Shown: positions 20,310-40,122, counted from the first letter of the stretch. The stretch is 64,000 nucleotides of DNA from Candidatus Omnitrophota bacterium (GCA_021735655.1 JAIPGM010000006.1:1-64000); one strand, 5' to 3'. Notes: generated by a model not told the origin, from the letters alone. A program made the numbers and translations.

Positions 20310-21244
20310 TTTTTAACCTCTAAATGAATATGTTTAGTGATTAATTTATTCGGTGTAACATCAAAGGCCGGATAATAACCCCGAACCCCTTTGGGTGCGA
20401 TCGGTACCCCAGCTAACTCCAACAACTCCTTATCTGGTCTTCTCTCTATTTTTATATCTTTACCAGTTTTAGCCCTTGAGGCCGGAGGGCAAATAACATA
20501 AAAAGGAACCTTAAAATGCTTAGCTAAAATAGCAATCTGATAAGTTCCAACCTTATTAGCAATATCGCCATTTTGAGCTAAATTATCAGCCCCAACAATA
20601 ACCTTATCGATTTTCTTCTCCTGCATTACCTGAGCTACCATATTATCGGTAATTATTGTAACTTTGAATCCGGCTTGGGACAATTCCCAGGCCGTAAGTT
20701 TTGAACCCTGTAAGTATGGTCGAGTTTCAGTAACAAAAAAAGTAACTTTTTTCTTTTGTTCGGCAGCAAATTTACCAATTAGAGGCATAAGCCCGCTAAT
20801 ATTACAGTGGGTCAGAACTACATCGTTGTCTTCAACTAACTTGCTGGCCGTTTGAGCCTGAGATATGCGTTTATTCTTAAGCATCTCTAAAAAGCCGACT
20901 ATAGCCTTCTCAACCGGCACACCAGAAGTAACCCAGGCCAAAACCATATCAGTTAAAAACTTAAAAGAAAGAGTTGGCCGAGTTGAGTTAAGCGCTTTGG
21001 CAACCTTATTTAGTAAAACTAAATTCACTTTTCCTTTATTCTTCCTAATAACTAAAAGAAATGTATACATAACAAGTAAAACTTGGCCTACGGCCCGAGT
21101 TTTCATCTTTTTTATTGCCAAACAGGCCTCTTGATAAGTCTTTACTTTTATGTATTTCACCTTAAAAGGAAGTAAGGTTTCATCAAGAATATAAATAGTA
21201 TCTTTTTTTAACTGAATTGGCCAAAATAAAGGTGAATAATTCAT
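20306..21244 (-). CDS. mtnA: MtnA / eIF-2B-family sugar-1-phosphate isomerase (5-methylthioribose-1-P / 5-deoxyribose-1-P isomerase-like)
   Basis: VLTHCN, ETRPYLQGSKLTAWEL, VGADNLAQNGDIANKVGTYQIA, PAFDVTP motifs diagnostic of MtnA. Confidence 0.8.
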   Translation of the reverse strand: MNYSPLFWPIQLKKDTIYILDETLLPFKVKYIKVKTYQEACLAIKKMKTRAVGQVLLVMYTFLLVIRKNKGKVNLVLLNKVAKALNSTRPTLSFKFLTDMVLAWVTSGVPVEKAIVGFLEMLKNKRISQAQTASKLVEDNDVVLTHCNISGLMPLIGKFAAEQKKKVTFFVTETRPYLQGSKLTAWELSQAGFKVTIITDNMVAQVMQEKKIDKVIVGADNLAQNGDIANKVGTYQIAILAKHFKVPFYVICPPASRAKTGKDIKIERRPDKELLELAGVPIAPKGVRGYYPAFDVTPNKLITKHIHLEVKK

Positions 21245-22044
21245 AGTTTTTTCCTATATTCAGAAAGTATCTTTAAGGTGACTTCGCCGGGGACGCCTTT
21301 TCCTATTTTTTTATCCTCGACCTCAACTAAAGGCATCACCTCCATGAGGCTGCTAGTAACAAAAGCTTCCTCAGAAGCATGAATATCCTCTACTCTAAAT
21401 TCTTTTTCTTTTAAGATTAAGCCGAGTTCTTTAACTATATCAATAACTACTCTTCTGGTGATCCCATCGAATGCTCCATCTTCTAATCTAGGAGTGAAAA
21501 CCTCTTTATCTTTAACCAAAAATAAATTACTTCTTGAACCGCCAGCTAAAAAACACTTAGGATTTATGACTAAGGCTTCCTCTTTGCCCTTACGTTGAGC
21601 CTCTAGCCAAGAAATCCTATTTCTTAAGTAACTTATACTCTTTAACTTGGAAAGCAAATCCTTACCACATCTCCTATGGGAAGAAACTATTGCCGAAAAA
21701 CCCTTCTCATAAACCTCGGAACTATAATAGCCAAATTTATCTACATAAAGCAATACGCCAACCCCTTTTCGCTTCTTATAAACAGTTATCCGAATGTAAG
21801 CATCTTCTAATTCATTCTCTTTAAGCAAAGACTTGATTTCTGTTTCCCAATCCTTTCCTACACTTTCAATTCCGATTAAATCCAACCCTTGGTTTAATCT
21901 TGTAATGTGCTTTTTTAGAAAAGGAATATTTCCTCGATAGGCTCTGAACGGCTCAAAAAGCCCCCAGCCGAATAAAAACCCTGGCTCGAAAATTTCTGCT
22001 ACCTGGGATTTGTCAACTATGTTTCCGTTACAATAGACCTTCAT
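21241..22044 (-). CDS. Class IV (fold type IV) PLP-dependent aminotransferase
   Basis: Length 267 aa and conserved pattern of BCAT/DAAT/ADC-lyase family. Confidence 0.65.
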   Translation of the reverse strand: MKVYCNGNIVDKSQVAEIFEPGFLFGWGLFEPFRAYRGNIPFLKKHITRLNQGLDLIGIESVGKDWETEIKSLLKENELEDAYIRITVYKKRKGVGVLLYVDKFGYYSSEVYEKGFSAIVSSHRRCGKDLLSKLKSISYLRNRISWLEAQRKGKEEALVINPKCFLAGGSRSNLFLVKDKEVFTPRLEDGAFDGITRRVVIDIVKELGLILKEKEFRVEDIHASEEAFVTSSLMEVMPLVEVEDKKIGKGVPGEVTLKILSEYRKKL

Positions 22045-22937
22045 TAACCAAATATATTAAAAAAATTCTTATGGGTAATTTTTTCCTTTACCTTGCCCCC
22101 AAGCGAATCTAACATTTTCAAACTATTGTTAACATCTCCACAAACCGGATAGTCCGAACCCCAAAGAAGTCTATCTTGACCAAACAAATCAATAGCTAGT
22201 TCAATATTCTTTAAAGATCCCCCGGAAGTGTCAACATAAACATTTTTTAGAATCTCACTCGGTGACTTTCCTAAATCTTTAACAATTTCTCTTTTTCTAA
22301 GCATTGCATAGACCCGATCAAATCTATCTTTTAAAAAAGGTACAACCCCGCCTAAAGATGAAAAGATAAAATTCAACTTATACTTTTCTAAAATACCTTC
22401 AACCATCAATAAACCAAGGAATATTGAAGCATCAAAGCTATACTCTAATACCGGCATAAGCAAGGGATCTTTCACCCTTTCAAAACCAATCGGATTGATT
22501 GTCTGAGGATGCACGAAAATAGGCAAGTTGTTACTTTCAGCTGCCTCAAATAGAGGCTCAAGCTCTTTAACCAAAAATTTACCGTTGTGGCTTGAGGCAA
22601 TGCTAATCGCTCCAAAACCTCGCTGCTTTAACTCCTCAACCTGAAAAGCAACTGTTGCTAAACTTTCCGTATCAACAATGCCAGCACCAATAATTTTAGA
22701 ATTTTCCTTAGTGATTTCCTCAAGGGCAGAGTTATAAATATCACAAACTCTTGCGAAAACTTCTAATTTTAAATGAGCGTCAGTTGATGGATAGCAAAGA
22801 AGCGCTTTTTCTATATTATGTTTATCAAGATAAGCAAAAAGCGCATCCCGATCAGTCCAAACACCTTTATAAAAAGCTGTGTAAGCTGATAGCTTTTCAG
22901 GGATAAAATGAATATGAGAATCACACAAGATACTCAA
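22044..22937 (-). CDS. Amidohydrolase-2 family TIM-barrel metal-dependent hydrolase
   Basis: N-terminal CDSHIH metal-binding motif, ~300 aa. Confidence 0.6.
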   Translation of the reverse strand: MSILCDSHIHFIPEKLSAYTAFYKGVWTDRDALFAYLDKHNIEKALLCYPSTDAHLKLEVFARVCDIYNSALEEITKENSKIIGAGIVDTESLATVAFQVEELKQRGFGAISIASSHNGKFLVKELEPLFEAAESNNLPIFVHPQTINPIGFERVKDPLLMPVLEYSFDASIFLGLLMVEGILEKYKLNFIFSSLGGVVPFLKDRFDRVYAMLRKREIVKDLGKSPSEILKNVYVDTSGGSLKNIELAIDLFGQDRLLWGSDYPVCGDVNNSLKMLDSLGGKVKEKITHKNFFNIFG

Positions 22938-24394
22938 ATATGTTTTTCTCCTTTAACTGCACCTTCTTCCCACTTAGCTACGCCCTGCATAACATCCTGA
23001 AAGCATAGCTTAGCTAAAGGGTCAAAATCAGAAGTCATAATTCTCTGAATTCTTCCTGGTTTTGAGAAAAACTCTCGCATCGACCAGGCCCCAAGCCTTC
23101 CTAAATCTTCAATTGTCAAATGGTCAGTCGGTATTACCGGATGTAAAAAATCCCATTTACGAAAATCAATCTTTCGTGGATCAAACCACCCTTTCTTTAA
23201 GCCAATTCTCCACATTGGTGAATTCGGAGCCGGTGTTACATAACCAACCCAAAGAATATCCGGATCAACAGTGTCAGTAAACTCATGTCTTTGTTTAACG
23301 ATCTGTTCAGTGTCATGATCAAAGCCAATCATAATGTCCGCAACCACAGCTACATCCTGAGCTCGCAAGATATCGATTGTTTTTTTAATATGTTCAATGG
23401 TTACCCCTTTAGCAATTTTCTTTAACTCTTCCGGAGTAGTTACCTCTATTCCAAAAACTCCCATAAACAGACCAGTTTCTTTCATTAACGGTAAGATCTT
23501 TTCACAATTTACCCAGTCAATAGCTCTCCCTAAAGAAACCCACTTTATCGGATTTCCTTTTTCCTTCTTTAAATTACAGAACTTCTCCACTCGATCAGCA
23601 TCAACATTAAAGTTATCATCCTGAATTACCACGACTTTAGTCCCAAACTTATGATGCAATAACTCTAGTTCCTCAATTACCCGCTCAGGCGATTTAGCTC
23701 TCCAGGTTAAAAAATCATTAGGTGAGCGAGGATCGTACTGGTTCCACTCATAACAAAAGGTACAGGCTGAAGGACAACCTCGAGAGGTTATCATTTCAAC
23801 AAATGGTTTCCAATGAGTATGACCAACGTATTTATCCATCGGAAACAAATCATAGGCTGGCAAAGGTAAACTGTCTAAATCAGTCATTAACGGTCGGTGT
23901 GGCCCCATCTGAGGCTTGCCATCGATCCTTGACGCTGTTCCAGCTACATCTTTAGTTGAAGTACCAGCTTCAATTGTTTGAACCAAATCAAGAAAACCTT
24001 CTTCCTCAGCCATAACTACATGATCAATAGCCGGATTGTCTTCTAAGGTTTCAATCGGAGTTGCTGAATACCAAAGACCACCAACAACAACTTTAACATT
24101 CGGTAAAACCTGTTTTATCTTAGCGGCGGCTTGATTAAAATGCCAAACAACTCCAAAGCCAACCGCACAATGAATCATATCACCGAGTAAAACTAAGTCA
24201 GGATTAATATCTTTTACCTTTTCTCCCAACTGATCTAAAGCGATACCTAAAACTGTACAATCAAGCACCTGTAAATCATTATAGCCATGTTCGCGGATAT
24301 AGGCTGCCCATTGAGCATATAGTTGATTAGGAGCAAAATGCTCTCCATGAGTTGCCCAAGCGCCTACTTTTGGTGATACAAATAAAATTTTCAT
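22934..24394 (-). CDS. B12-binding-domain radical SAM protein
   Basis: N-terminal Rossmann-like B12-binding region followed by TSRGCPSACTFC Cx3Cx2C. Confidence 0.8.
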   Translation of the reverse strand: MKILFVSPKVGAWATHGEHFAPNQLYAQWAAYIREHGYNDLQVLDCTVLGIALDQLGEKVKDINPDLVLLGDMIHCAVGFGVVWHFNQAAAKIKQVLPNVKVVVGGLWYSATPIETLEDNPAIDHVVMAEEEGFLDLVQTIEAGTSTKDVAGTASRIDGKPQMGPHRPLMTDLDSLPLPAYDLFPMDKYVGHTHWKPFVEMITSRGCPSACTFCYEWNQYDPRSPNDFLTWRAKSPERVIEELELLHHKFGTKVVVIQDDNFNVDADRVEKFCNLKKEKGNPIKWVSLGRAIDWVNCEKILPLMKETGLFMGVFGIEVTTPEELKKIAKGVTIEHIKKTIDILRAQDVAVVADIMIGFDHDTEQIVKQRHEFTDTVDPDILWVGYVTPAPNSPMWRIGLKKGWFDPRKIDFRKWDFLHPVIPTDHLTIEDLGRLGAWSMREFFSKPGRIQRIMTSDFDPLAKLCFQDVMQGVAKWEEGAVKGEKHI

Positions 24395-24408
24395 CTCTTT
24401 AATCCTCC

Positions 24409-25173
24409 TTATTTATCTTCTGGGTGATCTTGTTTAAAAGGAATTACTGGCTTTGTCCAAGGAGTTTGCTGGTTAATAACTGCTATCTCCAAAGGACAGA
24501 CATTTTTATCCTGTTTCAAAGCAAAAATAACAGTATTAGCTACTGCTTCTGGCTCCATTAATCTATCTTCAGCTATATCCTTTAACTTCCCAGTTAAAGG
24601 GGTTCTGGTAACTCCCGGGAAAATTGAAGTAACTTTAATTCCGAAATCACGCATCTCCCAAAAAAGCCCTTTAGCGAAAGCTCTGAGAGCTACTTTAAGC
24701 GAAGTGTAAACAATAAAATTACGCGGTGGGGGATCAACCATAACCGAACCGCTAGTTATATTAACAATATTTCCTCCACCTTGATCTTTCATCGGACCAA
24801 CGACTAACCGAGCAAGCATAACGTAACTAAAATAATTAGTATACATTATCTTTTCGATATCTTCAATTGGCTGATTCCAAAAAGGATGCTGGCTGGACAC
24901 ACCGGCTCCGTTAACTAGACAATCAACTCGGTTAAACTTAGATAAAGTCTCATTGACTAAATTCTCTAAATCAGCTTGTTTAGTAACGTCACACCTTAAG
25001 CATAAAACTTTATCCGGATTCGGCAAAGTTTTTTTAAACTCTTCCAAAACTTCTAGCCTTCTTGCCGCTAAGACTAAAGTCAAACCTTCTTTGGCCAGAC
25101 TTTCAACGATAACCTTACCAATCCCGCCGGAAGCCCCGGTAACAATACAAACTTTTCCTGTTAAATCAGACAT
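24409..25173 (-). CDS. SDR-family oxidoreductase (ketoreductase-like)
   Basis: TGASGGIGK cofactor motif and YxxxK region. Confidence 0.85.
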   Translation of the reverse strand: MSDLTGKVCIVTGASGGIGKVIVESLAKEGLTLVLAARRLEVLEEFKKTLPNPDKVLCLRCDVTKQADLENLVNETLSKFNRVDCLVNGAGVSSQHPFWNQPIEDIEKIMYTNYFSYVMLARLVVGPMKDQGGGNIVNITSGSVMVDPPPRNFIVYTSLKVALRAFAKGLFWEMRDFGIKVTSIFPGVTRTPLTGKLKDIAEDRLMEPEAVANTVIFALKQDKNVCPLEIAVINQQTPWTKPVIPFKQDHPEDK

Positions 25174-25185
25174 AACGCTCCTTTC

Positions 25186-26340
25186 TTAATGAGACTGCCC
25201 TTTTAAGGTCTTAGTCGAATTATCCAATAATCTATTCATAAAGAATCCTAGAAAAAATAAAATTATAGTCATGATGAAAAATAAAATTTTAAAACCAATG
25301 ATTGAACTTGCTAACAAGCTACCAAAAAAAGCCCCTAGGCCACCAAAGCCTAGTCTTAAAGAACTATTTAAACTAGAAGCATCTCTTAAAATTTTATCCG
25401 GCAAATGAGCCAAGTATGCCGACAACCCGGTATGTGAAAGAGCCCAGCCAGCGCCCCAAAAAACAATGGTTAAAATTATTAACTGATATTGCCAACTGAA
25501 CAATAAAATAGCAGTAAATACACTCATCGATATATATCCTATACGAGTAATTTTAATATTCCCAAAAGTAGAGCTCAAAAACCCACCTAAAAACCTAATA
25601 ACTATCGCGCAAACTGTTGAAATAGTAAAAATCGAACTTATCGCAACTTGCCTTAAAGCAAAACGTTCACTCAAATAGACTCCCAAATTTTGTTGTAGAC
25701 CATGGAATAAAAAACTGCCCAGGCCAACTGCTAAGAAAAGACGCAAAGCTTGCTTGTCTTTAAAAGTCTCAAAATAGCTTATCTTGAACTTTTCCCCTCT
25801 AAAATCAAAATCCTCTAAATAAAGTAAAATCAAAATGAAAATAAAAAAACAAAGAACTACCGGGGTTAAATAAATCGCCCGCCAAGGTAAAAAACCGCTC
25901 AAGAAAACTCCCAAGCAAGCTGAAACCGTAGAAAGAGCAAAAAATGTCCCTAAGTGCTTAGCCTTTTTGTCTGAATCTACGGCCTTCCCAATCGTAATAA
26001 AAGCTAGAGGTACGAAACCTGAACCAAAACAACCCATCATAAATCGAAACAAAAATGCCTGGTTTATACTCTGGGAAACACTAAAAAGCAAAGTCGAAAC
26101 ACTAAAGCCTATGATTGATATAAGCAAAAGATTTTTTACAGTAACGCTTCTCGATAGAGGCCCCCAGAAAAAAGCAAAGATGCCATAAGGAAGCATATAA
26201 ATCCAGGTAAGCCGGACAGCTATGTTTTTAGCAACCCCAAAATATTCAGCAATCGTTGGAACCAAAGCTGCTGTAGCTGATAAGCTAAAAGCAATAGCAA
26301 TAAAAATCAAACAAAAAATTAAAAAACTTCCTTTAGGCAT
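25186..26340 (-). CDS. MFS transporter
   Basis: 12 predicted TM helices, 384 aa. Confidence 0.7.
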   Translation of the reverse strand: MPKGSFLIFCLIFIAIAFSLSATAALVPTIAEYFGVAKNIAVRLTWIYMLPYGIFAFFWGPLSRSVTVKNLLLISIIGFSVSTLLFSVSQSINQAFLFRFMMGCFGSGFVPLAFITIGKAVDSDKKAKHLGTFFALSTVSACLGVFLSGFLPWRAIYLTPVVLCFFIFILILLYLEDFDFRGEKFKISYFETFKDKQALRLFLAVGLGSFLFHGLQQNLGVYLSERFALRQVAISSIFTISTVCAIVIRFLGGFLSSTFGNIKITRIGYISMSVFTAILLFSWQYQLIILTIVFWGAGWALSHTGLSAYLAHLPDKILRDASSLNSSLRLGFGGLGAFFGSLLASSIIGFKILFFIMTIILFFLGFFMNRLLDNSTKTLKGQSH

Positions 26341-26768
26341 TATTCCTTCTCAATTATCTCCTTAAATATCTTCATATTTGAAAGAGAATGATCATTGATC
26401 ATTTTTTCAGCTTGCTCATCATTAAATTTTGCGCCAGCAGCCATTTTAAAATCTTGGATCCAAGTCATCTCAGTCCCACCTTCAACCTCACGATACAACC
26501 AAATAATCTTCATAAATTCAAACGGGGCCATTGGCTCAACCCGAGATGCATAAGCAAATTTATCTTCTTTAAATAAAAGTCGGTAAGACTCCCAACTGCG
26601 GCCATTTTCATGGGTAAGCTTAAAAACTATCTTGTTTCCGGAAGTTTCTAAAACATCGCTTTCAACATATTCCTTAAAAAACTCTTTCCAACGTGAAATA
26701 TCATTGCTCATATCAAAAACCTTATCGTAAGTTGCCTTAATCACTACTGAATTTCTAGTGTGTGCCAT
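26340..26768 (-). CDS. SRPBCC-superfamily protein (polyketide cyclase/aromatase-like or lipid-binding)
   Basis: 142 aa, Bet v1-like pattern; context next to KS/CLF/ACP. Confidence 0.5.
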   Translation of the reverse strand: MAHTRNSVVIKATYDKVFDMSNDISRWKEFFKEYVESDVLETSGNKIVFKLTHENGRSWESYRLLFKEDKFAYASRVEPMAPFEFMKIIWLYREVEGGTEMTWIQDFKMAAGAKFNDEQAEKMINDHSLSNMKIFKEIIEKE

Positions 26769-26912
26769 TTTTTCTACCTCCTTTCAATGAGACTTAGTCT
26801 TTTTCTTCGCCTTCGGTTTGAAAAAGACTGTAGTCGAATTGATCCCGCCGAGCCTCGGGTAAATTTACGAAGGAAATTTACCCGATATCCGGGCGAGGCG
26901 GGATTACCTATA

Positions 26913-27716
26913 TTAATTATCAACCATAGCTACCACTCTCGCCCAGGCAGCTCCGGTTTTTCTTATTCTAACTGGAAAACAAATTACTTTGAAACCAAAA
27001 TCAGGTAACTTATCTAAATTGGCTAATCTTTCTATATGAATGAATTCACGTTTTCTTCCATAAAAATGGGTTGGCCAAAGCTTCTTTGGATCTTTTAACT
27101 CTTGAAACTCTTTAATCATAAACTTATAAGGCCGATCAATACCCATAGTATCAACACCGAAAATATTCACTTGCCTTTCAAGCAAATAGTCAATAACCGA
27201 TACATCTATCCCGGGATAATCAGAAAAATACTCTTTTTTGCCAAACAACTTATCCGAACCAGTATGCAATAAAACAATATCTAAAGGTTTTAATGAATAG
27301 TTAATCTTTTTTAGGCCGGCGTCTATATCTTGAGCAGTAATAACCTCTTCTGGTTTCTTATGCGTTAAATCGATTTTTACTCCCTGCTGGTAACACCAGT
27401 CTAAAGGTATTTCATCGGCAGTTTTTGAAGGGCGCCCCTGGGACTTACTACCATAATGATAAGAATAATCGAGATGTGTCCCACTGTGGACCGATGAATA
27501 AACCATCTCTAAAGATAAAAACTCTTCATCGGGCAAGTCTTCTTTTTTAATCATTCGCTCACCCTGTTCATAGCGAGCTTTACTTTCCGAATCACGCGAC
27601 ATCAAAACCTTATTTAACTTCTCAACCCCTTCACTGTGAGAAGTGCGCTCAATTCTTAAAGGATGTACTTCAAAGGCTTGGTCATCTATCGGCAGGCTCA
27701 AATCAACTATTTTCAT
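26913..27716 (-). CDS. Cyclase-family protein (kynurenine formamidase-like, PF04199)
   Basis: HSGTHLDYSYHYG resembling the HxGTHxDxPxH metal motif of the cyclase family. Confidence 0.65.
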   Translation of the reverse strand: MKIVDLSLPIDDQAFEVHPLRIERTSHSEGVEKLNKVLMSRDSESKARYEQGERMIKKEDLPDEEFLSLEMVYSSVHSGTHLDYSYHYGSKSQGRPSKTADEIPLDWCYQQGVKIDLTHKKPEEVITAQDIDAGLKKINYSLKPLDIVLLHTGSDKLFGKKEYFSDYPGIDVSVIDYLLERQVNIFGVDTMGIDRPYKFMIKEFQELKDPKKLWPTHFYGRKREFIHIERLANLDKLPDFGFKVICFPVRIRKTGAAWARVVAMVDN

Positions 27717-27731
27717 ATGTCTGTTATTTGC

Positions 27732-27965
27732 TTACTGCTTTTTTTTAGAAATTGTTTCGGTTATCTCTAAGGGAGTGGAAAACTTTGTAACCTCATCGGC
27801 CTCAAGATTAACTTGAAAGTTTTTCTTTAAGGCCACTACCAATTCCACTACTTCGGTTGAATCTACACCGATCGAATCATACATTTTCTGATCTTCTTTT
27901 AATTCCTCTTTACCAATATCTAATGTTTTACAAATAAGCTCAATTACCTCTTCTTTTAGCGCCAT
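27732..27965 (-). CDS. Acyl carrier protein
   Basis: 77 aa, acidic four-helix pattern with DSIGVDSTEVVEL phosphopantetheine-attachment-like site. Confidence 0.7.
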   Translation of the reverse strand: MALKEEVIELICKTLDIGKEELKEDQKMYDSIGVDSTEVVELVVALKKNFQVNLEADEVTKFSTPLEITETISKKKQ

Positions 27966-27980
27966 ATTTACCTCCTCAAT

Positions 27981-29213
27981 TTATTCTTTCTCAATTGCTA
28001 AAACAACATTTATTCCGCCACGACCTCTGGCCAAGATAAGAGCTTTCTTAACCTCAGCTTCCCTAGATTTATTCGGAGTATAATCTAAATCGCAGCAAGG
28101 ATCTTTCATTTCATAGTTAATGGTCGGTAGGATGGTTGAACTTTTCATCGAAAAAAGTGTCGAAATTAAATCTAAAGCTGTTTGAGCGCCCAATAAATTG
28201 CCATACATACTTTTAGGAGCACTTAAAGCAATATCTTTTATCCTTGTGCCGAATACATTCTTTAAGCTTCTGGTTTCAAGATAATCACCAAGTTCAGAAG
28301 CCTCAGCGTCTAAGCAAATATAATCAACCGCATCTTTTTTCCAACCAGCATCTTTGAGACATTCTTCTATCGCATACTCAAAATTACTTGAGTCGGGCCG
28401 GTAGCGTGAATAATGGTATCCATCAGAAGAAAACCCGATACCTTTTATAAACCCATACACCGGTACCCCTCTTTTTTTGGCTTGTGATTCCCTCTCTAGA
28501 AGCACAGTGCCTGATCCTTCGGCAATTACAAAACCGTCTCGATATAAATCGTAAGGTCGGTAGGCTTTTTTAAAGTTAAGGTTATTCTTTGATAAACCAC
28601 CCCGAGAATTAGCACATAAAAGTGCGTAGGGGCTAATCGGGGCTTCCATACCCCCAGCTACAACATAATCGTTTTTACCTTGGGCTACGGTTTTTGCCCC
28701 ATACCACAAAGCTAAGGCTGATGAAGCCTTGTCAGCGACTATGGTCTTACTATACCCTTTAAATCCGTAATAAATAGTAACTTGTCCTTGAGGGGCTGCC
28801 GGAAACCAGGCACTAGCCATATAAGGCGAAATACCTTCTCTTCCTTCAATATACATATCACGTAATTCGGTTTCAGCAAAAAGCCAGCCACCTAAAGCAT
28901 TACCCATAAAAACGCCAACTTTATTTTTATCAATATTATCTAAATCAATTTTTGAATCTTTAAGTGCCTGCTCACAAGAAACAAGAGCCATATGAGAAAA
29001 AACATCGATCTTTTTTACTAAGCGACCGGAAAGATGAGTATAGTGATCAAGCTCATGAACTTGACCGGCAATTCGTGAAGGATAACCGGAAGAATCAAAA
29101 CGGTTTACTTCATCGATAAACGATCCGCCTCGCTTAAGGTTAGCCCAAAAAGTTTCTTTCTTCAATCCACAAGGTGAAACTACACCAATACCAGTTATTG
29201 CTATTCTTTCCAT
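27981..29213 (-). CDS. Ketosynthase-like protein lacking catalytic Cys/His/His (chain-length-factor / KS-beta-like)
   Basis: Thiolase fold; active-site positions read ...DKASSAL... (no Cys), DAEAS instead of NAHGT, SMYGN instead of SMxGH. Confidence 0.75.
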   Translation of the reverse strand: MERIAITGIGVVSPCGLKKETFWANLKRGGSFIDEVNRFDSSGYPSRIAGQVHELDHYTHLSGRLVKKIDVFSHMALVSCEQALKDSKIDLDNIDKNKVGVFMGNALGGWLFAETELRDMYIEGREGISPYMASAWFPAAPQGQVTIYYGFKGYSKTIVADKASSALALWYGAKTVAQGKNDYVVAGGMEAPISPYALLCANSRGGLSKNNLNFKKAYRPYDLYRDGFVIAEGSGTVLLERESQAKKRGVPVYGFIKGIGFSSDGYHYSRYRPDSSNFEYAIEECLKDAGWKKDAVDYICLDAEASELGDYLETRSLKNVFGTRIKDIALSAPKSMYGNLLGAQTALDLISTLFSMKSSTILPTINYEMKDPCCDLDYTPNKSREAEVKKALILARGRGGINVVLAIEKE

Positions 29214-29216
29214 TAT

Positions 29217-30467
29217 TTAAGCCTCCCACCGTTTGAATACAATTGATGAATGTATTCCTGAAAATCCACTGCTTGTTTTTAATATGTAATTAGGCATAAG
29301 TTTTCGTTTTTTATTAGGAATATAGTCTAGATCGCACTTTGGATCTTGTTCTTCCTGATTAATGGTTGGCGGGAGATAACCACCTTTAAAAATCATACAG
29401 CAAAGTACAGCTTCAGCAGCATTAGCTGCAGCTAAAGGATGACCAATCATTGACTTTATCGAACTAATCGGAATTTTATAAGCTAAGTCACCAAAAACTT
29501 GCTTATAGGCATCCGTCTCAAAAGTATCGTTCTGCCTGGTGCTTGAACCGTGGGCATTAATATAACCTATCTCTTCCTTCTTAATCCCTGCCTCTTTAAT
29601 TGCCTCCTCCATACAGCGAGCCATTGGCTCACCGCTAGCCGGTAGATCAGTCATATGATAAGCATTGCAACTTGTGCCATAACCTAAAACTTCCGCATAA
29701 ATTGGAGCCCCGCGCTTTTTAGCATGCTCAAGCTCCTCCATAATTACAATTCCCGCTGCCTCAGAAATTACAAAGCCATTTCGCTTATTATCAAAAGGAC
29801 GCGAGGCCTTATGTGGCTCATCATTATTTTTAGCTAAAACATTTACCACGTCAAAAGCACCAAAGGTAATCGGAGTAACCGGAGCCTCACTTGCCCCGGC
29901 AATAATAAATTCCTGCCTGCCCTCACGAATAAGCTCATAGGCAAAGCCTATCGAATCGCTTCCTGCGGTACAACCAGTTGAAACCGTACAGTTCATACCT
30001 TGAGTTCCATAAACTGCTCCCACCTCAGCGCTGGGACTATTAAACATAGCTGCATCATAAAGATAAGGTCGACCTTTTCTTGGATCAATTGGTTTTTTAC
30101 CCCACTCGGTAACTAATAAAAACTCCTCTTCCATGAAGCGGGTTCCGCAAATTGCATTAGCTAAAACTACACCACAGCGACGGCGGTCAACGCTTTCAAA
30201 GTCAATTTTTGAATCGCTAACTGCCTGTTTAGCCGCGGCAACTGCAAATTGAACATACCTATCCATACGCTTATGCTCAGCGATTCCATAGTTCAAAGGA
30301 TCGAACCCTAAAACCTGAGAAGCAATCTTTGAAACAAAAATACTAACATCAAAATTTTCAACTAGCTCAACGGAAGACCTACCTTCAATAAGGTTATTAT
30401 AAAACTCATGTTTATCTTCGCCAGCTCCCGAAATTATCCCAACTCCAGTAATAACTACTCTTCTCAT
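29217..30467 (-). CDS. Beta-ketoacyl-ACP synthase (FabF-like, active KS-alpha)
   Basis: STGCTAGS active-site Cys, NAHGSST and IGHPLAAA His motifs. Confidence 0.88.
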   Translation of the reverse strand: MRRVVITGVGIISGAGEDKHEFYNNLIEGRSSVELVENFDVSIFVSKIASQVLGFDPLNYGIAEHKRMDRYVQFAVAAAKQAVSDSKIDFESVDRRRCGVVLANAICGTRFMEEEFLLVTEWGKKPIDPRKGRPYLYDAAMFNSPSAEVGAVYGTQGMNCTVSTGCTAGSDSIGFAYELIREGRQEFIIAGASEAPVTPITFGAFDVVNVLAKNNDEPHKASRPFDNKRNGFVISEAAGIVIMEELEHAKKRGAPIYAEVLGYGTSCNAYHMTDLPASGEPMARCMEEAIKEAGIKKEEIGYINAHGSSTRQNDTFETDAYKQVFGDLAYKIPISSIKSMIGHPLAAANAAEAVLCCMIFKGGYLPPTINQEEQDPKCDLDYIPNKKRKLMPNYILKTSSGFSGIHSSIVFKRWEA

Positions 30468-30480
30468 TATTTAATACTCC

Positions 30481-31104
30481 TTAATCTTTTCGGGTAATCT
30501 TAAAAATAATATTTCCACCATCAGGACAAGTTACTGTATCAATAGAATTATGATCCTTCATGAAGAAAAATTTAGCTCCAAAATTAAGAGCAAAAAGAGC
30601 CGGAAAGGCGACATGCCAGGCTGCCCCACAAAATCCATCAATACACTTTAAACCTTTTACCTGCCACTTATCACCCAGCTTATATTTATAAGAACATTTA
30701 CCTTTAGCTTTAACAACTTCAATCTCCATGTTTTTAGGATTAGGTCCTTTGTGGTTAGGGTCTTTAGGAATAAATTTAACTTTGTCATTCTTGTCTAATA
30801 GCTCAACTAAAAATTCGGCCTTTCCACCATCAGGGCAAGTAACTTTTAGAGATTTCTGATTATCCATAAAGCCAAACCGGGCGCCAAAACTTAGAGCATA
30901 AGCAACCGGAAAAAGTGCATGGGCTAAACCTAAACAAAAATGTTTAGGCGGATGGGTAAAATCTCCCAAAATAAACTCATCGTTAACTTCGTAACCATGA
31001 TAACACTCTCCATAAACTCCAATACAAGTTAACTTCAACCTAGGAAAAGGAGTATTGATATCGGCACAGTTAGCCTTGCAATATTCATCTTTACAATTTT
31101 TCAT
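30481..31104 (-). CDS. Tandem-duplicated Cys/His-rich small-domain protein (TIGR04076-like, tentative)
   Basis: Two internal repeats each with FC.G.AHA.FP...AL.FGA.F.FM......VTCPDGG. Confidence 0.45.
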   Translation of the reverse strand: MKNCKDEYCKANCADINTPFPRLKLTCIGVYGECYHGYEVNDEFILGDFTHPPKHFCLGLAHALFPVAYALSFGARFGFMDNQKSLKVTCPDGGKAEFLVELLDKNDKVKFIPKDPNHKGPNPKNMEIEVVKAKGKCSYKYKLGDKWQVKGLKCIDGFCGAAWHVAFPALFALNFGAKFFFMKDHNSIDTVTCPDGGNIIFKITRKD

Positions 31105-31137
31105 ATGATTTTAGCTCCTTAATAAATCTATCCTTTT

Positions 31138-32142
31138 TTAAGAATTAATCGAATTTATTTCTCTCAACAACTCTTCTTTAGATAAAAATCTACCAGTCTC
31201 CTCTAAATTATGCACTAGCTCAACTATTTTTTGATTAAGCTTAGCCGGCTCACAGTTAGCTATAGCCTGATGTATGATTTCTCCGTTAATATAGTCAATT
31301 TCTGATTTTTTCCCACGCTTTATGGATTGTAAAATTGAACCATATAAAGGTTCTTTGCTTAAATTAGTCATAATTTTTGAGAATAGACCAGCTGCTTCAT
31401 CTAAAGGCATCTTAACTAAGCCTTCAATTCTCTCCTTGGGATAAGTTAAAAGACTGGCTAATTCTATATTAGCCTTGGTTATAATTTCATAGGCTTCTTT
31501 GTTCAGCTTAATTGCCAAGCGGGCTAAGTCTATATCAACAAATGCCTCCTGCATCGAAACTCCCAGAATAGCCGGAATGCAATTATTTAAATTTACAAAT
31601 AACTTAAGATACTTAGCACCTTTTATATTATCTGAACTAACTACGTTGAAGGCTGGTTTAAGTAGATTAACGACTTCTTCGTATTTTTCTACTTTAGTAT
31701 TATATATATTTCCTAATACGAGTTCACCTTCAAAATTATGGATAACCTTATCCGGTGAGTAAAAAGTTGCCCCAAACATAACAATCCCGCTCAGTATTTT
31801 ATTTTCGGGGATAAAACTATTAACAATATGATCGGCCTGTATTCCATTTTGAGTAGTTAGAGCTAAAGAATTTTTCAAAAATTCAAAATTGTCGTTGATA
31901 ATTGCTTCAAGATCATTAACCTTGGTTGCAAAAATGGCTAAGTCTACCCTTTCAGTTAACTTTGTATCAACCTTAACTTCTTGCTTATGACTACCGCGGA
32001 CACCCTCTAAGCTCAGGCCTTCTTTTAGTAATAAACCTTTCTGATGATCACGAACAACGCCGACTACATCATGGCCATCTTTAGCAAGATAACCTAAAAA
32101 TAATCCGCCAATTGCTCCGCAACCTAATACTGCTATTTTCAT
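31138..32142 (-). CDS. Ketopantoate reductase (ApbA/PanE) family NAD(P)-dependent oxidoreductase
   Basis: MKIAVLGCGAIGG Rossmann motif, length 334 aa. Confidence 0.75.
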   Translation of the reverse strand: MKIAVLGCGAIGGLFLGYLAKDGHDVVGVVRDHQKGLLLKEGLSLEGVRGSHKQEVKVDTKLTERVDLAIFATKVNDLEAIINDNFEFLKNSLALTTQNGIQADHIVNSFIPENKILSGIVMFGATFYSPDKVIHNFEGELVLGNIYNTKVEKYEEVVNLLKPAFNVVSSDNIKGAKYLKLFVNLNNCIPAILGVSMQEAFVDIDLARLAIKLNKEAYEIITKANIELASLLTYPKERIEGLVKMPLDEAAGLFSKIMTNLSKEPLYGSILQSIKRGKKSEIDYINGEIIHQAIANCEPAKLNQKIVELVHNLEETGRFLSKEELLREINSINS

Positions 32143-32151
32143 AAATTTATT

Positions 32152-32412
32152 CTACTCTTTTATATATTTCGAATATTCAATGCCCTGCTGGCTAAAAAGT
32201 CTTTTCATCATATCTTTAAAGGCCGGGGGCACTTCTTTAAAAAAAGCGATAACCACATCTTGGTCTTCTACGGCCTCAGAGTTTCTTTTGGTAGCTAGTT
32301 CTTCAGCGCTTTCTTTAACTAGTTGCTCAGCTATTGAGCGATGAAATTGGGGAAGATTTTCAATTACCTTATCAAAATGTTCTTTTGCTTTATCGGACCA
32401 CTTAATATCCAT
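32152..32412 (-). CDS. Small PCP_red-like domain protein
   Basis: IKWSDKAKEHFDKVIENLPQFHRSIAEQLVKESAEELA matches W-S/T-x-E-A...IP-x-F-x-R pattern of standalone PCP_red (PF08369) proteins. Confidence 0.45.
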   Translation of the reverse strand: MDIKWSDKAKEHFDKVIENLPQFHRSIAEQLVKESAEELATKRNSEAVEDQDVVIAFFKEVPPAFKDMMKRLFSQQGIEYSKYIKE

Positions 32413-32421
32413 ATAATCCTC

Positions 32422-33156
32422 CTACAGTTTATCAATTGCCTCAAAGGCTAAATCAGTCATCTTCATTTCAGCCCCGAAAAAACGATAATCACTAAATCCC
32501 ATCTGGCCGGTTATGAGATTGTCCGACACTACACAAATTGCCGCAGCCCGTTTATTATTAAGGTTAGCAACCGTTACAAAGGGTGAAGTTACCATGTCTA
32601 CGGCAATCGCTCCTTTCTCAATATAGGGGTTAACAATTTCTTTGGTCTCACGAAAGATAGCGTCGGTAGTCCAAATCCCTCCTCGGTGAACAGATCCGGC
32701 CCCGGAAAAAGAATTCTCTAAAATGTCGGTTACCTCATTGTCTACCTTAGGTTTATAATCGTCATCAACATAATAACGAGTTGTTCCATCTCCACGCAAA
32801 ACATCGGTCACTAAAACATAATCCCCGATATTAATGTCCTGACGTAGAGCCCCACAAGAACCCAATCTAATAAATGTCTTAACCCCTCCGGCACAAAGTA
32901 TCTCAGTAGCTAGGGCTGAGTCAGGAGCGTAAAATCCTCCATTACCGACAGTAATTTTTCTCCCCTTATAAAGCCCGGTCCAAAAGGTATAAGCTAAAAA
33001 AGTAAAGTTCTTGACTGGATTTTCTAATTTCTTTAGACACATTTGAGCCCGATGTTGTTGACCGCTTACTAAAACAATATCACCAAAATCACCCGGCTTA
33101 AACTGCAAAGAAGCTAAAAGCCCCTTAGGATCCATATGAACATCTCTCTGCATCAT
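32422..33156 (-). CDS. PNP/UDP-family nucleoside phosphorylase (putative 5'-deoxyadenosine/MTA phosphorylase or futalosine-hydrolase-like)
   Basis: RLGSCGAL phosphate-binding motif and VDMVTSPF (E-M-E-x-A-like) region. Confidence 0.7.
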   Translation of the reverse strand: MMQRDVHMDPKGLLASLQFKPGDFGDIVLVSGQQHRAQMCLKKLENPVKNFTFLAYTFWTGLYKGRKITVGNGGFYAPDSALATEILCAGGVKTFIRLGSCGALRQDINIGDYVLVTDVLRGDGTTRYYVDDDYKPKVDNEVTDILENSFSGAGSVHRGGIWTTDAIFRETKEIVNPYIEKGAIAVDMVTSPFVTVANLNNKRAAAICVVSDNLITGQMGFSDYRFFGAEMKMTDLAFEAIDKL

Positions 33157-33158
33157 AG

Positions 33159-34631
33159 CTATACTCCTCGATTAATTAGTTTTGTTTTATCTATCTTTCC
33201 GGTTCTATTTTTAGGTAACTCTTTTACAAATTCAAAATAATGCGGCATTTTAAAATGAGCTAAGCTCTGTTTTAAAAAATCTTTTAACTCTGAATCATCT
33301 AAATTTTCCCCGTCTTTAGCAACAATGAAAGCTTTTGGAACTTCTCCACGTAGTTTATCACCCACACCAATAACAGCCGCCTCTTTTACTTTGGGACATT
33401 GGCTTATTTTTTCTTCGACTTCAGCCGGAAAAACAATCTCACCAGCTACCTTAATCATATCTTTTTTTCGCCCAACAATATAATAAAGGCCTTGGCTGTC
33501 AAACGATGCAATATCTCCAGTTCTAAACCAGCCATCTTCGGTTAGGGCTTCTTTAGTTAAATCTGGCTCTCTAAAATACCCCTTAGTCACAGCTTTACCT
33601 TTAACCATTAGTTCCCCTTTCTTATCAAGCCCGAGAGACTTACCTTCAGGATCAACAATCTTTACTTCTAAGTCAGAGGTAAAATTACCAATGCTTCTTA
33701 TCTTATCATCGCCGGGCGGTGAAATAGTATTGGGAGCGGCGGTTTCGGTCATCCCCCAACCATTGGCTAATTGAGCATTAGGATAAGCCCTATGAAAACG
33801 CTTGAGTAGGGCTGGTGAAGATGGCGCACCGAAAACAACTGCATAACGCAGAGAAGAAAAATCAAAACCCTGGTATTCTTTCAAAGATAAAATAGCCATA
33901 AACATTGCCGGAACAATACAAAAAATAGTTACCTTATGTTCTTGAATATTCTTTAAAAACTCAAAAGGATGAAAGCGTGGCATCAAAACTAACTTACAAG
34001 AAAAATAAAGCATCAATAATATGTAATCTAAGCCACCGACATGAGAAAAAGGAACTCCGCCGCATAAAAATACATCACCGGAAGAAACGCTTAAAAACTG
34101 ATCAATAACCTTTGGTGGGTTACCGAGTTGTGAATAGTTAAGCATTACCCCTTTGGGATGACCAGTTGAACCAGAAGTATAAAATATTGCTGCTAGGTCG
34201 CTTTCAGAAATATCTAAAGATATCTCATCGGTCTTCTCAAAGCTTAATTCAGTAACTATTTCACCTAAGTCAGGACAACTGCTTTTAATTTTATCTAAAT
34301 CAACTCCCTTTCTAGGCTGGATAATTAATAGTTTAGCCTGACTATGATTAAGAAAGTTTATAACTTCCTCTTCAGTAAGCATATAGTCTAAAGGCACAAC
34401 GCAGGCTCCAAGACAAAATACTCCTAAAAAACTATAGATAGTTTCCGGAATATTAGGAAGGAAAAGGGCCACCTTATCATCTTTGCCAATACCCTTAATT
34501 TGCAAATAATTACTAACCCCCAAAGCCATAGCTTTAACCTCTGAGAAAGAAATACTCCTTCCTTCAAAGATAATAGCTGATTTATCCGAACAATTTTGGG
34601 CGTGCTTTTTAAGTAAATCCTGAATATGCAT
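33159..34631 (-). CDS. AMP-dependent synthetase/ligase (fatty acyl-AMP/CoA ligase)
   Basis: YTSGSTGHPKGV AMP-binding motif, 490 aa; first gene of minus-strand operon. Confidence 0.85.
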   Translation of the reverse strand: MHIQDLLKKHAQNCSDKSAIIFEGRSISFSEVKAMALGVSNYLQIKGIGKDDKVALFLPNIPETIYSFLGVFCLGACVVPLDYMLTEEEVINFLNHSQAKLLIIQPRKGVDLDKIKSSCPDLGEIVTELSFEKTDEISLDISESDLAAIFYTSGSTGHPKGVMLNYSQLGNPPKVIDQFLSVSSGDVFLCGGVPFSHVGGLDYILLMLYFSCKLVLMPRFHPFEFLKNIQEHKVTIFCIVPAMFMAILSLKEYQGFDFSSLRYAVVFGAPSSPALLKRFHRAYPNAQLANGWGMTETAAPNTISPPGDDKIRSIGNFTSDLEVKIVDPEGKSLGLDKKGELMVKGKAVTKGYFREPDLTKEALTEDGWFRTGDIASFDSQGLYYIVGRKKDMIKVAGEIVFPAEVEEKISQCPKVKEAAVIGVGDKLRGEVPKAFIVAKDGENLDDSELKDFLKQSLAHFKMPHYFEFVKELPKNRTGKIDKTKLINRGV

Positions 34632-34661
34632 TGAAATACCTAGTAAAATTAAATTAGTAAA

Positions 34662-34689
34662 ATTTTACTATATTTCCTATTTCAGTCAA
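34662..34689 (-). promoter_or_regulatory. Sigma70-like promoter for the biosynthetic operon (TTGACT-16-TAAAAT on minus strand)
   Basis: Reverse complement of 34662-34689 reads TTGACTgaaataggaaatatagTAAAAT, ~30 nt upstream of AMP-ligase ATG. Confidence 0.5.
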
Positions 34690-35884: not shown

Positions 35885-36375
35885 TTTATTATTAGACTTT
35901 TGAGTTTTTTTCTTTTAGTCAGTCGAGGATAAGAAACAGGAGCGCCTAAAGCTATAACCGCTTCTAGCTCAAGGTTAGGCCTTAACTTAAGATATTTATG
36001 AACCTTTTTCTTTTGATTAAGAATCTCACCTAGCCAGCAGGCGCCTAACTTTTTAGAATGAATACAAAGTAATATGTTTTGAATACAAGAACCAATGGCC
36101 ATTAGATCTTTCTCATAATTATAAGAGGTCTTCTTATCTAAAAATACTAAAATAAGTTTATCGGCTGATTTGATAATATGACCATAATGAGTAAAAACAG
36201 CCAAAGCATCCTTTTTCTCCTTATCTAGAACCATAAACCGCCAGGGCTGGTTATTGAGTCCCGAAGGCGCCCAGCGACCAGCCTCTAAAATTTTGTTAAC
36301 CGTCTGCCTAGAAACAGCCCTCTTTTTAAACTTTCGCACTGACCTTCTATCTTTTATTAACCTTAACGCTCTCAT
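35881..36375 (-). CDS. Nitroreductase-family protein
   Basis: DRRSVRKF ... APSGLNNQPW nitroreductase motifs. Confidence 0.8.
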   Translation of the reverse strand: MRALRLIKDRRSVRKFKKRAVSRQTVNKILEAGRWAPSGLNNQPWRFMVLDKEKKDALAVFTHYGHIIKSADKLILVFLDKKTSYNYEKDLMAIGSCIQNILLCIHSKKLGACWLGEILNQKKKVHKYLKLRPNLELEAVIALGAPVSYPRLTKRKKLKSLIIK

Positions 36376-37699: not shown

Positions 37700-37879
37700 G
37701 ACTTTTCTTTCTTTGCCATAAATCCAATGATATACATAATATACATTTCCTGATATTATAGATAAATTACATAATTAAAGCAACATTTTTCTTCCAAAAT
37801 CATTAAAAACATGCTAAAATTTTACTATATATATCAATAAAATATAAAAACATATATTATGCATATTAATTGTTAGATG
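37700..37879 (+). other. attI region with GTTAGAT core site (recombination point G37872|TT)
   Basis: aattGTTAGATgtaaaat immediately upstream of first cassette ORF; AT-rich. Confidence 0.65.
37713..37741 (+). promoter_or_regulatory. Candidate cassette promoter Pc (TTGCCA-17-ATAATA)
   Basis: TTGCCA 37713-37718 and ATAAT(A) 37736-37741 oriented toward cassette array, located at intI 5' end/attI as in known integrons. Confidence 0.5.
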
Positions 37880-37905
37880 TAAAATAAAATGATAAAAGGA
37901 GAAAA

Positions 37906-39189: not shown

Positions 39190-39203
39190 ATATTAAATTA
39201 CCC

Positions 39204-39278: not shown

Positions 39279-39284
39279 TAAAAA

Positions 39285-40109: not shown

Positions 40110-40122
40110 GAAAATTAATAAA

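Follow-up and report, generated by a model that had tools for sequence, protein, structure and literature searches.

The stretch of DNA analyzed here (the window) comprises 64,000 nucleotides from a Candidatus Omnitrophota bacterium (GCA_021735655.1, JAIPGM010000006.1:1-64000) and carries a single operon of 18 minus-strand genes, running from 34631 down to 17815, whose core, judged by sequence comparison, is an aromatic type II polyketide synthase (PKS) of the "ancestral," non-actinomycete kind. We tentatively favor the reading that the operon as a whole directs the oxygen-independent synthesis of an aromatic type II polyketide, with tailoring by a radical S-adenosylmethionine (SAM) enzyme and with a module for salvage of the resulting by-product. 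Most likely, the product of the operon is an aromatic compound that is hydrophobic, associated with the membrane or envelope, and, as the strong conservation of the genes suggests, important to the lifestyle of the cell.

In the proposed pathway, a heterodimer of an active ketosynthase (KS-alpha) and a chain-length factor (CLF) would act with an acyl carrier protein (ACP) to build a poly-beta-ketone, which a TcmN-type aromatase/cyclase (ARO/CYC) and a PF04199 cyclase would fold and aromatize. Homology further suggests that an ACMSD/LigW-type enzyme is available for decarboxylation of an aromatic acid, a short-chain dehydrogenase/reductase (SDR) for keto reduction, and a major facilitator superfamily (MFS) transporter for product export. 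An acyl-AMP ligase would prime the ACP with a non-acetate acid, and a B12-binding radical SAM enzyme (B12-rSAM) and its helper may carry out C-methylation, hydroxylation, or cyclization, reactions that are done in aerobes by O2-dependent enzymes. The B12-rSAM would consume SAM and release 5'-deoxyadenosine. A module resembling the dihydroxyacetone phosphate (DHAP) shunt would take 5'-deoxyadenosine or 5'-methylthioadenosine (MTA) through a 5-deoxy-pentose-1-phosphate and a ketose-1-phosphate to DHAP and an aldehyde, and the aldehyde to an acid; this would clear an inhibitory by-product and recover its carbon, and the acid may also pass to the ligase. An ApbA-like reductase and a tandem TIGR04076 protein appear to be conserved partners of the synthase.

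Organization of the operon

The genes of the operon, in the order of transcription, are:

33159..34631, minus strand: acyl-AMP (ANL) ligase (PF00501, E 2.7e-82, and AMP-binding_C)
32422..33156, minus strand: hexameric-type nucleoside phosphorylase, PNP (PNP_UDP_1; PF01048, E 1.6e-35)
32152..32412, minus strand: small helical DUF2621/PCP_red-like protein (PF11084, 29.9 bits)
31138..32142, minus strand: ApbA/PanE-family NAD(P)H oxidoreductase (ApbA and ApbA_C)
30481..31104, minus strand: tandem TIGR04076 Cys/His-rich protein (two repeats)
29217..30467, minus strand: KS-alpha, active ketosynthase with Cys-His-His (ketoacyl-synt N and C domains)
27981..29213, minus strand: CLF-type KS partner with K162/D302/N339 (FabF alignment)
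27732..27965, minus strand: ACP (PP-binding, E 5e-10)
26913..27716, minus strand: PF04199 metal-dependent cyclase (E 8e-30)
26340..26768, minus strand: TcmN-type aromatase/cyclase of the SRPBCC fold (Polyketide_cyc2; TcmN match in the PDB)
25186..26340, minus strand: MFS transporter, putative exporter (MFS_1, E 8.4e-32)
24409..25173, minus strand: SDR oxidoreductase, candidate ketoreductase (adh_short, E 5.6e-46, and KR domain)
22934..24394, minus strand: class B (B12-binding) radical SAM enzyme (B12-binding and Radical_SAM)
22044..22937, minus strand: Amidohydro_2 protein of the ACMSD/LigW non-oxidative decarboxylase type (PF04909)
21241..22044, minus strand: class IV aminotransferase (BCAT/D-AAT/ADC-lyase fold), an optional member (PF01063, E 8.2e-48)
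20306..21244, minus strand: MtnA-like aldose-1-phosphate to ketose-1-phosphate isomerase (IF-2B, E 6.5e-59)
19308..20309, minus strand: class II (FucA/DrdA-type) aldolase fused to a C-terminal SCP2 domain (Aldolase_II, E 3e-35; SCP2, 29.7 bits)
17815..19311, minus strand: NAD(P)+ aldehyde dehydrogenase (ALDH), the last gene (BADH-type family, 525 bits)

Most junctions are overlaps of 1-4 nt or gaps of 2-15 nt, and the five 3'-most genes, from Amidohydro_2 to ALDH, overlap by 1-4 nt and are syntenic in relatives. Two gaps are larger: 33 nt separate ApbA from TIGR04076, and 144 nt separate the cyclase gene from the SRPBCC gene. A first-pass annotation made from the sequence had placed an operon at 22934-34689 with junctions of 0-15 nt. 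All of the genes it named are present on the minus strand with strong family matches, and most junctions are as tight as it described, but the two larger gaps exceed its range, the PNP gene within its limits was omitted, and the five further genes extending to 17815 were missed. The DHAP-shunt-like module and the phylum-wide conservation of the operon both lie beyond that account.

The ketosynthase pair and the aromatic core

Alignment to AntD shows that KS-alpha (KS1) retains Cys-His-His, and these residues are present in 82/82 true KS matches. The best relatives of KS1 in the PDB are AntD (361.7 bits) and Act KS1 (345 bits), narrowly above FabF (343 bits), and the protein is 45% identical to the KS of a Clostridium beijerinckii PKS. 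Against the NCBIfam FabF model it scores 453 bits, just below the cut-off of 493.75, and the CLF (KS2) scores 346 bits. In the CLF, alignment to FabF places K162 (C to K), D302 (H to D), and N339 (H to N) at the catalytic positions. The triad is Lys or Arg, Asp, and Asn without exception in about 87 related loci, a pattern that by sequence reads as a fixed alternative state and not as decay. At the former Cys site, Lys/Arg thus stands where Gln is found classically; the CLF relatives of Clostridium and Ktedonobacter share the Lys/Arg, within a D-K/R-A-S motif. CLF identity is 70-83% across more than 120 Omnitrophota protein clusters. Outside this family, in a library clustered at 50% identity, the nearest relatives come from metagenome-assembled genomes (MAGs) of Desulfobacterota/Deltaproteobacteria (55%); identity then drops to 43%, followed by Clostridium beijerinckii and C. 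puniceum (39%) and Ktedonobacter (38%). The D-K/R-A-S motif occurs in all of these. The ACP carries a GVDS motif with the phosphopantetheine-attachment Ser. One complete genome (CP070837.1, locus L065) has a CLF gene without an adjacent KS gene, with an oppositely oriented acyl-AMP ligase gene directly upstream of the CLF; its active KS may be encoded elsewhere or lost.

The SRPBCC protein finds its best PDB matches in TcmN ARO/CYC (2REZ; 103.8 bits, E 5.5e-29, full length) and the WhiE cyclase (81 bits). In the PF04199 cyclase, which we take to be of the OxyN/DpsY type, the HxGTHxDxxxH metal motif is intact, and the protein is 44% identical to the cyclase of the C. beijerinckii PKS cluster. 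The solved relatives of the Amidohydro_2 protein are mostly decarboxylases, as are all of the closest: ACMSD and the 5-carboxyvanillate (LigW), isoorotate (IDCase), gamma-resorcylate, and 2,3-dihydroxybenzoic acid (2,3-DHBA) decarboxylases. The SDR scores under every FabG cut-off, and the MFS gene belongs to the conserved core, being retained even in the minimal locus L001. Six components of the operon have homologs in the C. beijerinckii locus L088, namely the KS (45%), CLF (39%), cyclase (44%), TIGR04076 domain, SRPBCC protein, and Amidohydro_2 protein (27%). This locus is presumably the clostrubin (clr) cluster, given the organisms and the placement of ClrB of C. beijerinckii and C. puniceum within the ancestral clade (PMC7693217).

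The architecture described for ancestral, non-actinomycete aromatic PKSs is KS-CLF-ACP-TcmN-OxyN (PMC7693217), and the operon's core of KS, CLF, and ACP with a PF04199 cyclase and a TcmN-type ARO/CYC corresponds to it. The first-pass annotation had correctly recognized an active KS with Cys-His-His beside a KS homolog in which all three catalytic residues are replaced, and it had named their retention on careful alignment as a test; they are not retained. Its view of an uncharacterized type II PKS-like operon built on a KS/CLF heterodimer, and not housekeeping fatty acid synthesis, also stands, with AntD and Act KS as the best relatives of KS1 and the CLF nearest to the Clostridium and Ktedonobacter CLFs. 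In the light of the ancestral architecture, its denial of a match to a textbook aromatic PKS cannot be upheld. Nor does the missing dehydratase argue against an aromatic PKS, since aromatic type II PKSs dehydrate via the ARO/CYC and the absence of a FabZ-type enzyme is therefore expected.

That the KS pair instead serves an Omnitrophota fatty acid or ladderane-like synthase, with the cyclase-family proteins in other roles, is very unlikely. The NCBIfam comparison does put KS1 closest to FabF, antiSMASH "ladderane" calls in Omnitrophota have been reported from metagenomes (PMC9902471), conservation is as strong as primary metabolism would show, and lipid-type exporters (MMPL, DUF1329, and DUF1302) stand beside the cluster in loci L006 and L090. 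However, FabH, FabD, FabZ, and FabI are all missing from the operon and from the related loci examined, none of which shows synteny with ordinary fatty acid operons. There is likewise no hot-dog dehydratase among the 18 operon genes or in the loci examined, a result that also speaks against an aryl polyene cluster, in which FabZ-like dehydratases accompany KS/CLF and a reducing cycle. The B12-rSAM scores only 69.9 bits against the ladderane radical SAM family TIGR04072 (cut-off 360), the ARO/CYC is a close TcmN homolog, and the CLF groups with aromatic-PKS CLFs.

The least probable of the readings considered is a synthase for a non-aromatic carbocycle of the cispentacin or coronafacic acid type, in which a keto or hydroxy acid from the aminotransferase and the ApbA-like enzyme would be loaded onto the ACP by the ligase, and the KS heterodimer would perform one elongation and a cyclization. 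Such systems have similar parts (adenylating enzyme, ACP, KS heterodimer, reductase, and aminotransferase), ApbA/PanE enzymes reduce 2-keto acids, and the models for AmcB (29.9 bits) and AmcF (168 and 112 bits) are matched weakly. These matches nonetheless fall far under the cut-offs (80 bits for AmcB and 325 bits for AmcF), more than half of the loci have no aminotransferase, and the TcmN-type ARO/CYC, the PF04199 cyclase, and the aromatic-acid-type decarboxylase indicate aromatic chemistry.

Conservation and gene order

Peptide patterns specific to the CLF match 369 species-level genomes. Of the best 80, almost all are MAGs of Omnitrophota, among them the complete Ca. Velamenicoccus archaeovorus LiM genome, and a few are Deltaproteobacteria/Thermodesulfobacteriota MAGs. 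The 18 operon proteins were compared by tblastn with 87 loci, and genes were counted in the 37 nonredundant loci with full flanks, where a 10-kb flank limit undercounts genes at the operon ends. In this set, the B12-rSAM and the decarboxylase are each present in 35 loci, PNP in 34, the isomerase in 32, and the aldolase in 28; the class IV aminotransferase is found in only 16. The ligase is present in 26 of the 28 full-flank loci in the group with at least 65% identity. KS and CLF (72-85% identity) are more conserved than the neighboring rRNA methyltransferase (53-70%).

The gene set recurs in three gene orders across Omnitrophota, and in Desulfobacterota MAGs. The main lineage (CLF identity of at least 65%) has the order seen in the window. 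In a lineage of about 55% identity, which includes Velamenicoccus, the order is PNP-MtnA-(small IF-2B-like)-aldolase/SCP2-ALDH-B12rSAM-DUF2621-ApbA-TIGR04076-KS-CLF-ACP-cyclase-SRPBCC-MFS-SDR-decarboxylase-(second B12-rSAM), and locus L064 begins ligase-PNP-MtnA-aldolase-ALDH-DUF2621-ApbA. The complete genome CP070807.1 has the pathway split over two loci. The first holds ApbA-TIGR04076-KS-CLF-ACP-cyclase-SRPBCC-MFS; the second (L090, 1035162-1056172) holds B12rSAM-decarboxylase-aminotransferase-MtnA-small IF-2B-aldolase/SCP2-ALDH-DeoC-ADH-MMPL-DUF1329-DUF1302-DUF169, where ADH is an alcohol dehydrogenase. The B12-rSAM thus stays with the shunt genes, apart from the PKS core.

In the Desulfobacterota locus L006 the order is MMPL, DUF1329, B12-rSAM, aldehyde:ferredoxin oxidoreductase (AFOR), ApbA, two TIGR04076 units, KS, CLF, ACP, cyclase, SRPBCC, MFS, a second AFOR, decarboxylase, a flavin adenine dinucleotide (FAD) oxidase, PNP, two IF-2B genes, and aldolase-SCP2. 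One of its two AFOR genes therefore lies before ApbA and the other after MFS, and the sequence of the locus ends inside the aldolase gene, beyond which an ALDH gene may lie. The FAD amine-oxidase-like gene was considered as a replacement for the aminotransferase and rejected: most loci have no aminotransferase, and locus L089 carries similar FAD genes that look like generic desaturases or oxidases.

An MMPL (RND-type) transporter gene with DUF1329, DUF1302, and DUF169 genes adjoins the tailoring and shunt half in L090, and MMPL and DUF1329 also flank the L006 cluster; DUF169 is found in the C. beijerinckii PKS cluster as well. These neighbors hint at a hydrophobic product exported to the envelope.

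The B12-binding radical SAM enzyme and its probable helper

The B12-rSAM has a CPSACTFC cluster motif (CxxxCxxC) and a B12-binding domain, and is 70-94% identical in relatives. Its best curated families are BchE (174 bits, cut-off 481) and HpnJ (136 bits, cut-off 578). At about one third of these cut-offs it belongs to neither family and therefore appears to be a new class B subfamily. The role in alkylation or cyclization suggested in the first-pass annotation is plausible.

The small gene labeled PCP_red-like in that annotation is present, but its product scores 19.6 bits against PCP_red, below the Pfam cut-off of 32.5, and 29.9 bits against DUF2621 (PF11084), just above the cut-off of 27.7. 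The PCP_red domain sits at the C-terminus of some BchE proteins. A DUF2621-like gene directly follows the B12-rSAM gene in the lineage of about 55% identity, a second copy follows the B12-rSAM in L047, L053, and L057, and the gene is absent along with the B12-rSAM in L059 and L001. The small protein is likely a helper of the B12-rSAM, and we infer that the two form a unit for O2-independent tailoring of the aromatic scaffold.

In the lineage of about 55% identity, the decarboxylase gene is followed by another B12-radical SAM gene that has diverged from the first (42-44% identity), as seen in L082 (17430-20415; Ca. Velamenicoccus archaeovorus), L076, and L085. In L082, HypF-C-like and HypC genes come next after it.

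The TIGR04076 and ApbA-like proteins

The Cys and His residues of the tandem TIGR04076 protein are invariant. Its predicted model is confident (pLDDT 81.7), and no solved structural relative of the model was found. TIGR04076 recurs beside KS/CLF in Omnitrophota, Desulfobacterota, L089, and Clostridium, and may for this reason be an accessory subunit of the synthases in this clade. The ApbA-like reductase scores 147.8 bits against TIGR00745, above the cut-off of 141.35, and where its gene occurs it almost always precedes TIGR04076-KS, also in Desulfobacterota and L089. The arrangement of TIGR04076 varies: in C. beijerinckii a TIGR04076-domain protein (L088 11260-11787) is encoded directly after the CLF, and in another MAG (L089 1179-1851) two single-domain genes lie beside KS/CLF.

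The nucleoside module and the acyl-AMP ligase

Taken together, PNP, the MtnA-like isomerase, the class II aldolase-SCP2 fusion, and the ALDH look like a complete module of the DHAP-shunt or fluoroacetate-pathway kind. The best solved relative of PNP is the Sulfolobus 5'-methylthioadenosine phosphorylase 1JDS, at only 93.6 bits. The isomerase scores 214.5 bits against TIGR00524, above the cut-off of 185.85, and 240.9 bits against the strict MtnA equivalog, below its cut-off of 279. Alignment of the aldolase with FucA shows that the catalytic Glu and the three Zn-binding His (HxH...H) are retained; the ALDH is below the equivalog cut-off of the BADH-type family. The fluoroacetate pathway, which proceeds through a fluorinase, PNP, isomerase, aldolase, and ALDH, is an established precedent. 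A methionine-salvage reading, with the aldolase as an MtnB dehydratase, was rejected: the protein scores better against aldolase families than against MtnB, the aldolase residues are kept, and neither an enolase-phosphatase nor a dioxygenase accompanies it.

In sequence conservation, the PNP follows the PKS core (62-85% identity). The isomerase, aldolase, and ALDH are exchanged as a unit: even close relatives differ in which of two xenologous versions (60-74% vs 36-39% identity) they carry. The 36-39% version looks like one swapped in as a unit by horizontal transfer. The aldolase-SCP2 fusion is present in both versions and in Desulfobacterota, and in L002 and L090 DeoC and ADH genes accompany or replace the ALDH gene. 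An extra open reading frame (ORF) of 148-162 amino acids with a weak IF-2B match lies between the MtnA-like and aldolase genes in L002, L005, L006, and L082. In many loci it occurs together with the isomerase, and it travels with the 36-39% version; the window and L004 lack it.

The ligase has as its nearest solved structures the 4-coumarate:CoA ligases (227 bits), feruloyl-CoA synthetase, and FadD13, and is a candidate for activating a starter acid and priming the ACP.

Possible by-product salvage and precursor supply

MTA and 5'-deoxyadenosine are established substrates of DHAP-shunt chemistry (PMC10986504, PMC12632272). The use of this chemistry here for salvage of the radical SAM by-product is favored by the adjacency of B12-rSAM and module in the lineage of about 55% identity (PNP-MtnA-aldolase-ALDH-rSAM-helper), by the split genome CP070807.1, in which the B12-rSAM remains with the module, and by the DeoC and alcohol dehydrogenase beside the alternative module, both of which can use acetaldehyde.

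Several points weigh against the favored reading as a whole. All of its steps are drawn from homology and gene neighborhood. The B12-rSAM lies far below every curated family cut-off, which leaves its proposed reaction tentative. With Lys/Arg in place of the classical CLF Gln, decarboxylative priming may proceed unlike that of textbook systems. Pure salvage explains neither the SCP2 lipid-binding domain on the aldolase in every lineage nor the retention of shunt genes without the B12-rSAM in L059, and the Desulfobacterota, with larger genomes, still hold the module within the cluster. The L064 ligase gene directly adjoins PNP-MtnA-aldolase-ALDH, an arrangement that fits precursor supply better than salvage, and the ligase resembles aryl and fatty acid ligases, not acetate ligases.

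Under the alternative of precursor supply, which is possible but somewhat less probable than the reading we favor, PNP, isomerase, aldolase-SCP2, and ALDH would build a polyketide starter by the logic of the fluoroacetate pathway. A 5'-substituted 5'-deoxyadenosine would be converted to X-CH2-CHO and then X-CH2-COOH, and the ligase would transfer the acid to the ACP, where KS/CLF would extend it. Candidates for X are H, OH, SCH3, and a hydrophobic substituent introduced through radical adenosylation, as by HpnH or MqnE. In support are the L064 order and the spacing of 2 nt between the ligase gene and PNP in the main lineage. The free acid formed by the ALDH would have to be activated, and the Desulfobacterota AFOR enzymes could supply one likewise; the 4CL/FadD-like character of the ligase is in keeping with this. 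The SCP2 fusion, kept in both xenologous aldolases and across phyla, suggests a hydrophobic ligand, and both the persistence of the module in L059 and Desulfobacterota and the contrast between a PNP that tracks the PKS core and three enzymes swapped as a unit fit as well. On the other hand, no enzyme making an unusual 5'-substituted adenosine is identifiable, known adenosylating radical SAM enzymes are not B12-dependent, the module of the split genome sits with the B12-rSAM and away from KS/CLF/ACP, and the DeoC and ADH beside the alternative module fit acetaldehyde disposal. Several loci, moreover, show no ligase gene, but in the lineage of about 55% identity the upstream region falls outside the 10-kb flanks.

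We place salvage slightly ahead of starter-acid supply; the two readings are not mutually exclusive. An extended proposal, which we regard as unlikely, is that the product is an aromatic polyketide of primary-metabolism grade, such as an O2-independent envelope pigment or a quinone-like electron carrier. Its starter would come from C4'-C5' of a SAM-derived 5'-deoxynucleoside via the in-operon PNP, isomerase, aldolase-SCP2, ALDH, and ligase, and the TIGR04076 tandem and ApbA would be unrecognized subunits of ancestral type II PKSs.

Chromosomal setting

Two further elements of the operon are noncoding:

34662..34689, minus strand: candidate sigma-70-type promoter TTGACT-16-TAAAAT (10/12 consensus matches)
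26769..26912, minus strand: structured intercistronic spacer of 144 nt (minimum free energy -50 kcal/mol, z = -4.25)

The candidate promoter lies within the 107-nt gap 5' of the ligase gene, the first of the operon. The number of sigma-70-type consensus sites in the region is not above shuffled expectation, and the promoter is proposed from its fit to the consensus only. The spacer, which separates the cyclase gene from the SRPBCC gene, forms two long hairpins, its z value being relative to shuffles. In relatives this junction holds insertions of 0.6-1.8 kb, and in L064 it holds the B12-rSAM gene itself. An Rfam scan of 17000-38000 revealed no riboswitch or other known RNA.

The KS-like (CLF) protein is 100% identical to an NCBI MAG protein. 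Flanking genes are ordinary chromosomal ones (DnaG, RpoD, GatA/B, TsaD, Era, and RNase Y), and GC content is uniform across the window. About 1.7 kb upstream of the operon lies a chromosomal integron (window 36347-44646). Its integrase gene intI (36347-37699, minus strand) scores 395.7 bits against TIGR02249 (cut-off 265), and its plus-strand cassettes comprise about 10 short ORFs, all in one orientation, which encode MORN-repeat proteins, a signal peptidase S26, and unknown proteins and are parted by nine imperfect-palindrome attC-like sites (TAACAA..CAATCCAGCGGAC ... GCCGCTGATTTTTGTGTTA). A GTTAGA core is found within the 206-nt gap on the attI side, and L035 has an intI homolog (68% identity) at the equivalent position. 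Despite the nearby integron, a mobile-island reading of the operon is not supported, given the uniform GC content, housekeeping flanks, and synteny with RlmD and nitroreductase genes common to many MAGs.

Significance

A 2023 catalogue lists Ca. Omnitrophica among the phyla with KS-CLF pairs (PMC10132072). In the literature searched, Omnitrophota KS-CLF and ladderane clusters are mentioned only at this catalogue level; we found no report on what the operon makes or does, and it goes unmentioned in the major genomics papers on Omnitrophota. Type II aromatic PKSs are viewed as sporadic secondary metabolism, mostly of actinomycetes, whereas here one forms a conserved, strongly constrained operon of a whole phylum. 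Its Omnitrophota hosts are uncultured, genome-reduced, probably host-dependent nanobacteria, and the operon is shared with some sulfate-reducer relatives. The B12-radical SAM enzyme with its helper protein may represent a route to oxygen-free tailoring of aromatic polyketides, and the operon physically links polyketide assembly to the metabolism of SAM by-products; a DHAP-shunt-like module with an SCP2-fused aldolase inside a type II PKS operon is unprecedented. TIGR04076 and the ApbA-like proteins are two candidate new accessory families, which our analysis places also in the Clostridium type II PKS cluster (presumably clostrubin). Enrichments of Ca. Velamenicoccus archaeovorus offer a testable handle on Omnitrophota biology, and the operon one on early KS/CLF evolution.

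Comparison with known systems

The separate PCP_red/DUF2621-like putative helper of the operon recalls the PCP_red domain of BchE, the anaerobic Mg-protoporphyrin monomethyl ester cyclase. Unlike BchE and HpnJ, the B12-rSAM has no tetrapyrrole or hopanoid context around it. As in the fluoroacetate/4-fluorothreonine pathway of Streptomyces cattleya, the predicted module would convert a 5'-substituted adenosine to a substituted acetate through PNP, an isomerase, an aldolase, and an aldehyde dehydrogenase, but unlike that pathway the operon has no fluorinase/chlorinase (DUF62) gene. With the DHAP shunt (MtnP or MtnN plus MtnK, MtnA, and Ald2; DrdK/DrdI/DrdA), it shares an MtnA-type isomerase and a class II aldolase with an intact metal site, preceded in the biochemical order by a phosphorylase that may correspond to that of the shunt. 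Unlike the shunt, it is embedded among polyketide genes, its aldolase bears a conserved SCP2 domain, it has a dedicated ALDH (AFOR genes in the Desulfobacterota locus), and its phosphorylase is of the DeoD/SsMTAP hexameric type.

Like the systems for clostrubin (clr, Clostridium beijerinckii/puniceum), wexrubicin, dendrubin (den), AQ-256 (ant, Photorhabdus), and pyxidicycline, the operon combines KS-alpha, a CLF-type partner, and ACP with a monodomain TcmN-type ARO/CYC and a PF04199 cyclase. AntD, the best solved relative of KS1, belongs to these ancestral aromatic PKSs, and anaerobes are producers in both cases. Unlike them, the Omnitrophota CLF forms a family of its own, with identity falling from 55% to 43-39% outside it. 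The Omnitrophota operon also adds the ApbA reductase, the tandem TIGR04076 fusion, the B12-rSAM with its helper, the ANL ligase, and a whole nucleoside-to-aldehyde-to-acid module, and it is conserved phylum-wide rather than sporadically.

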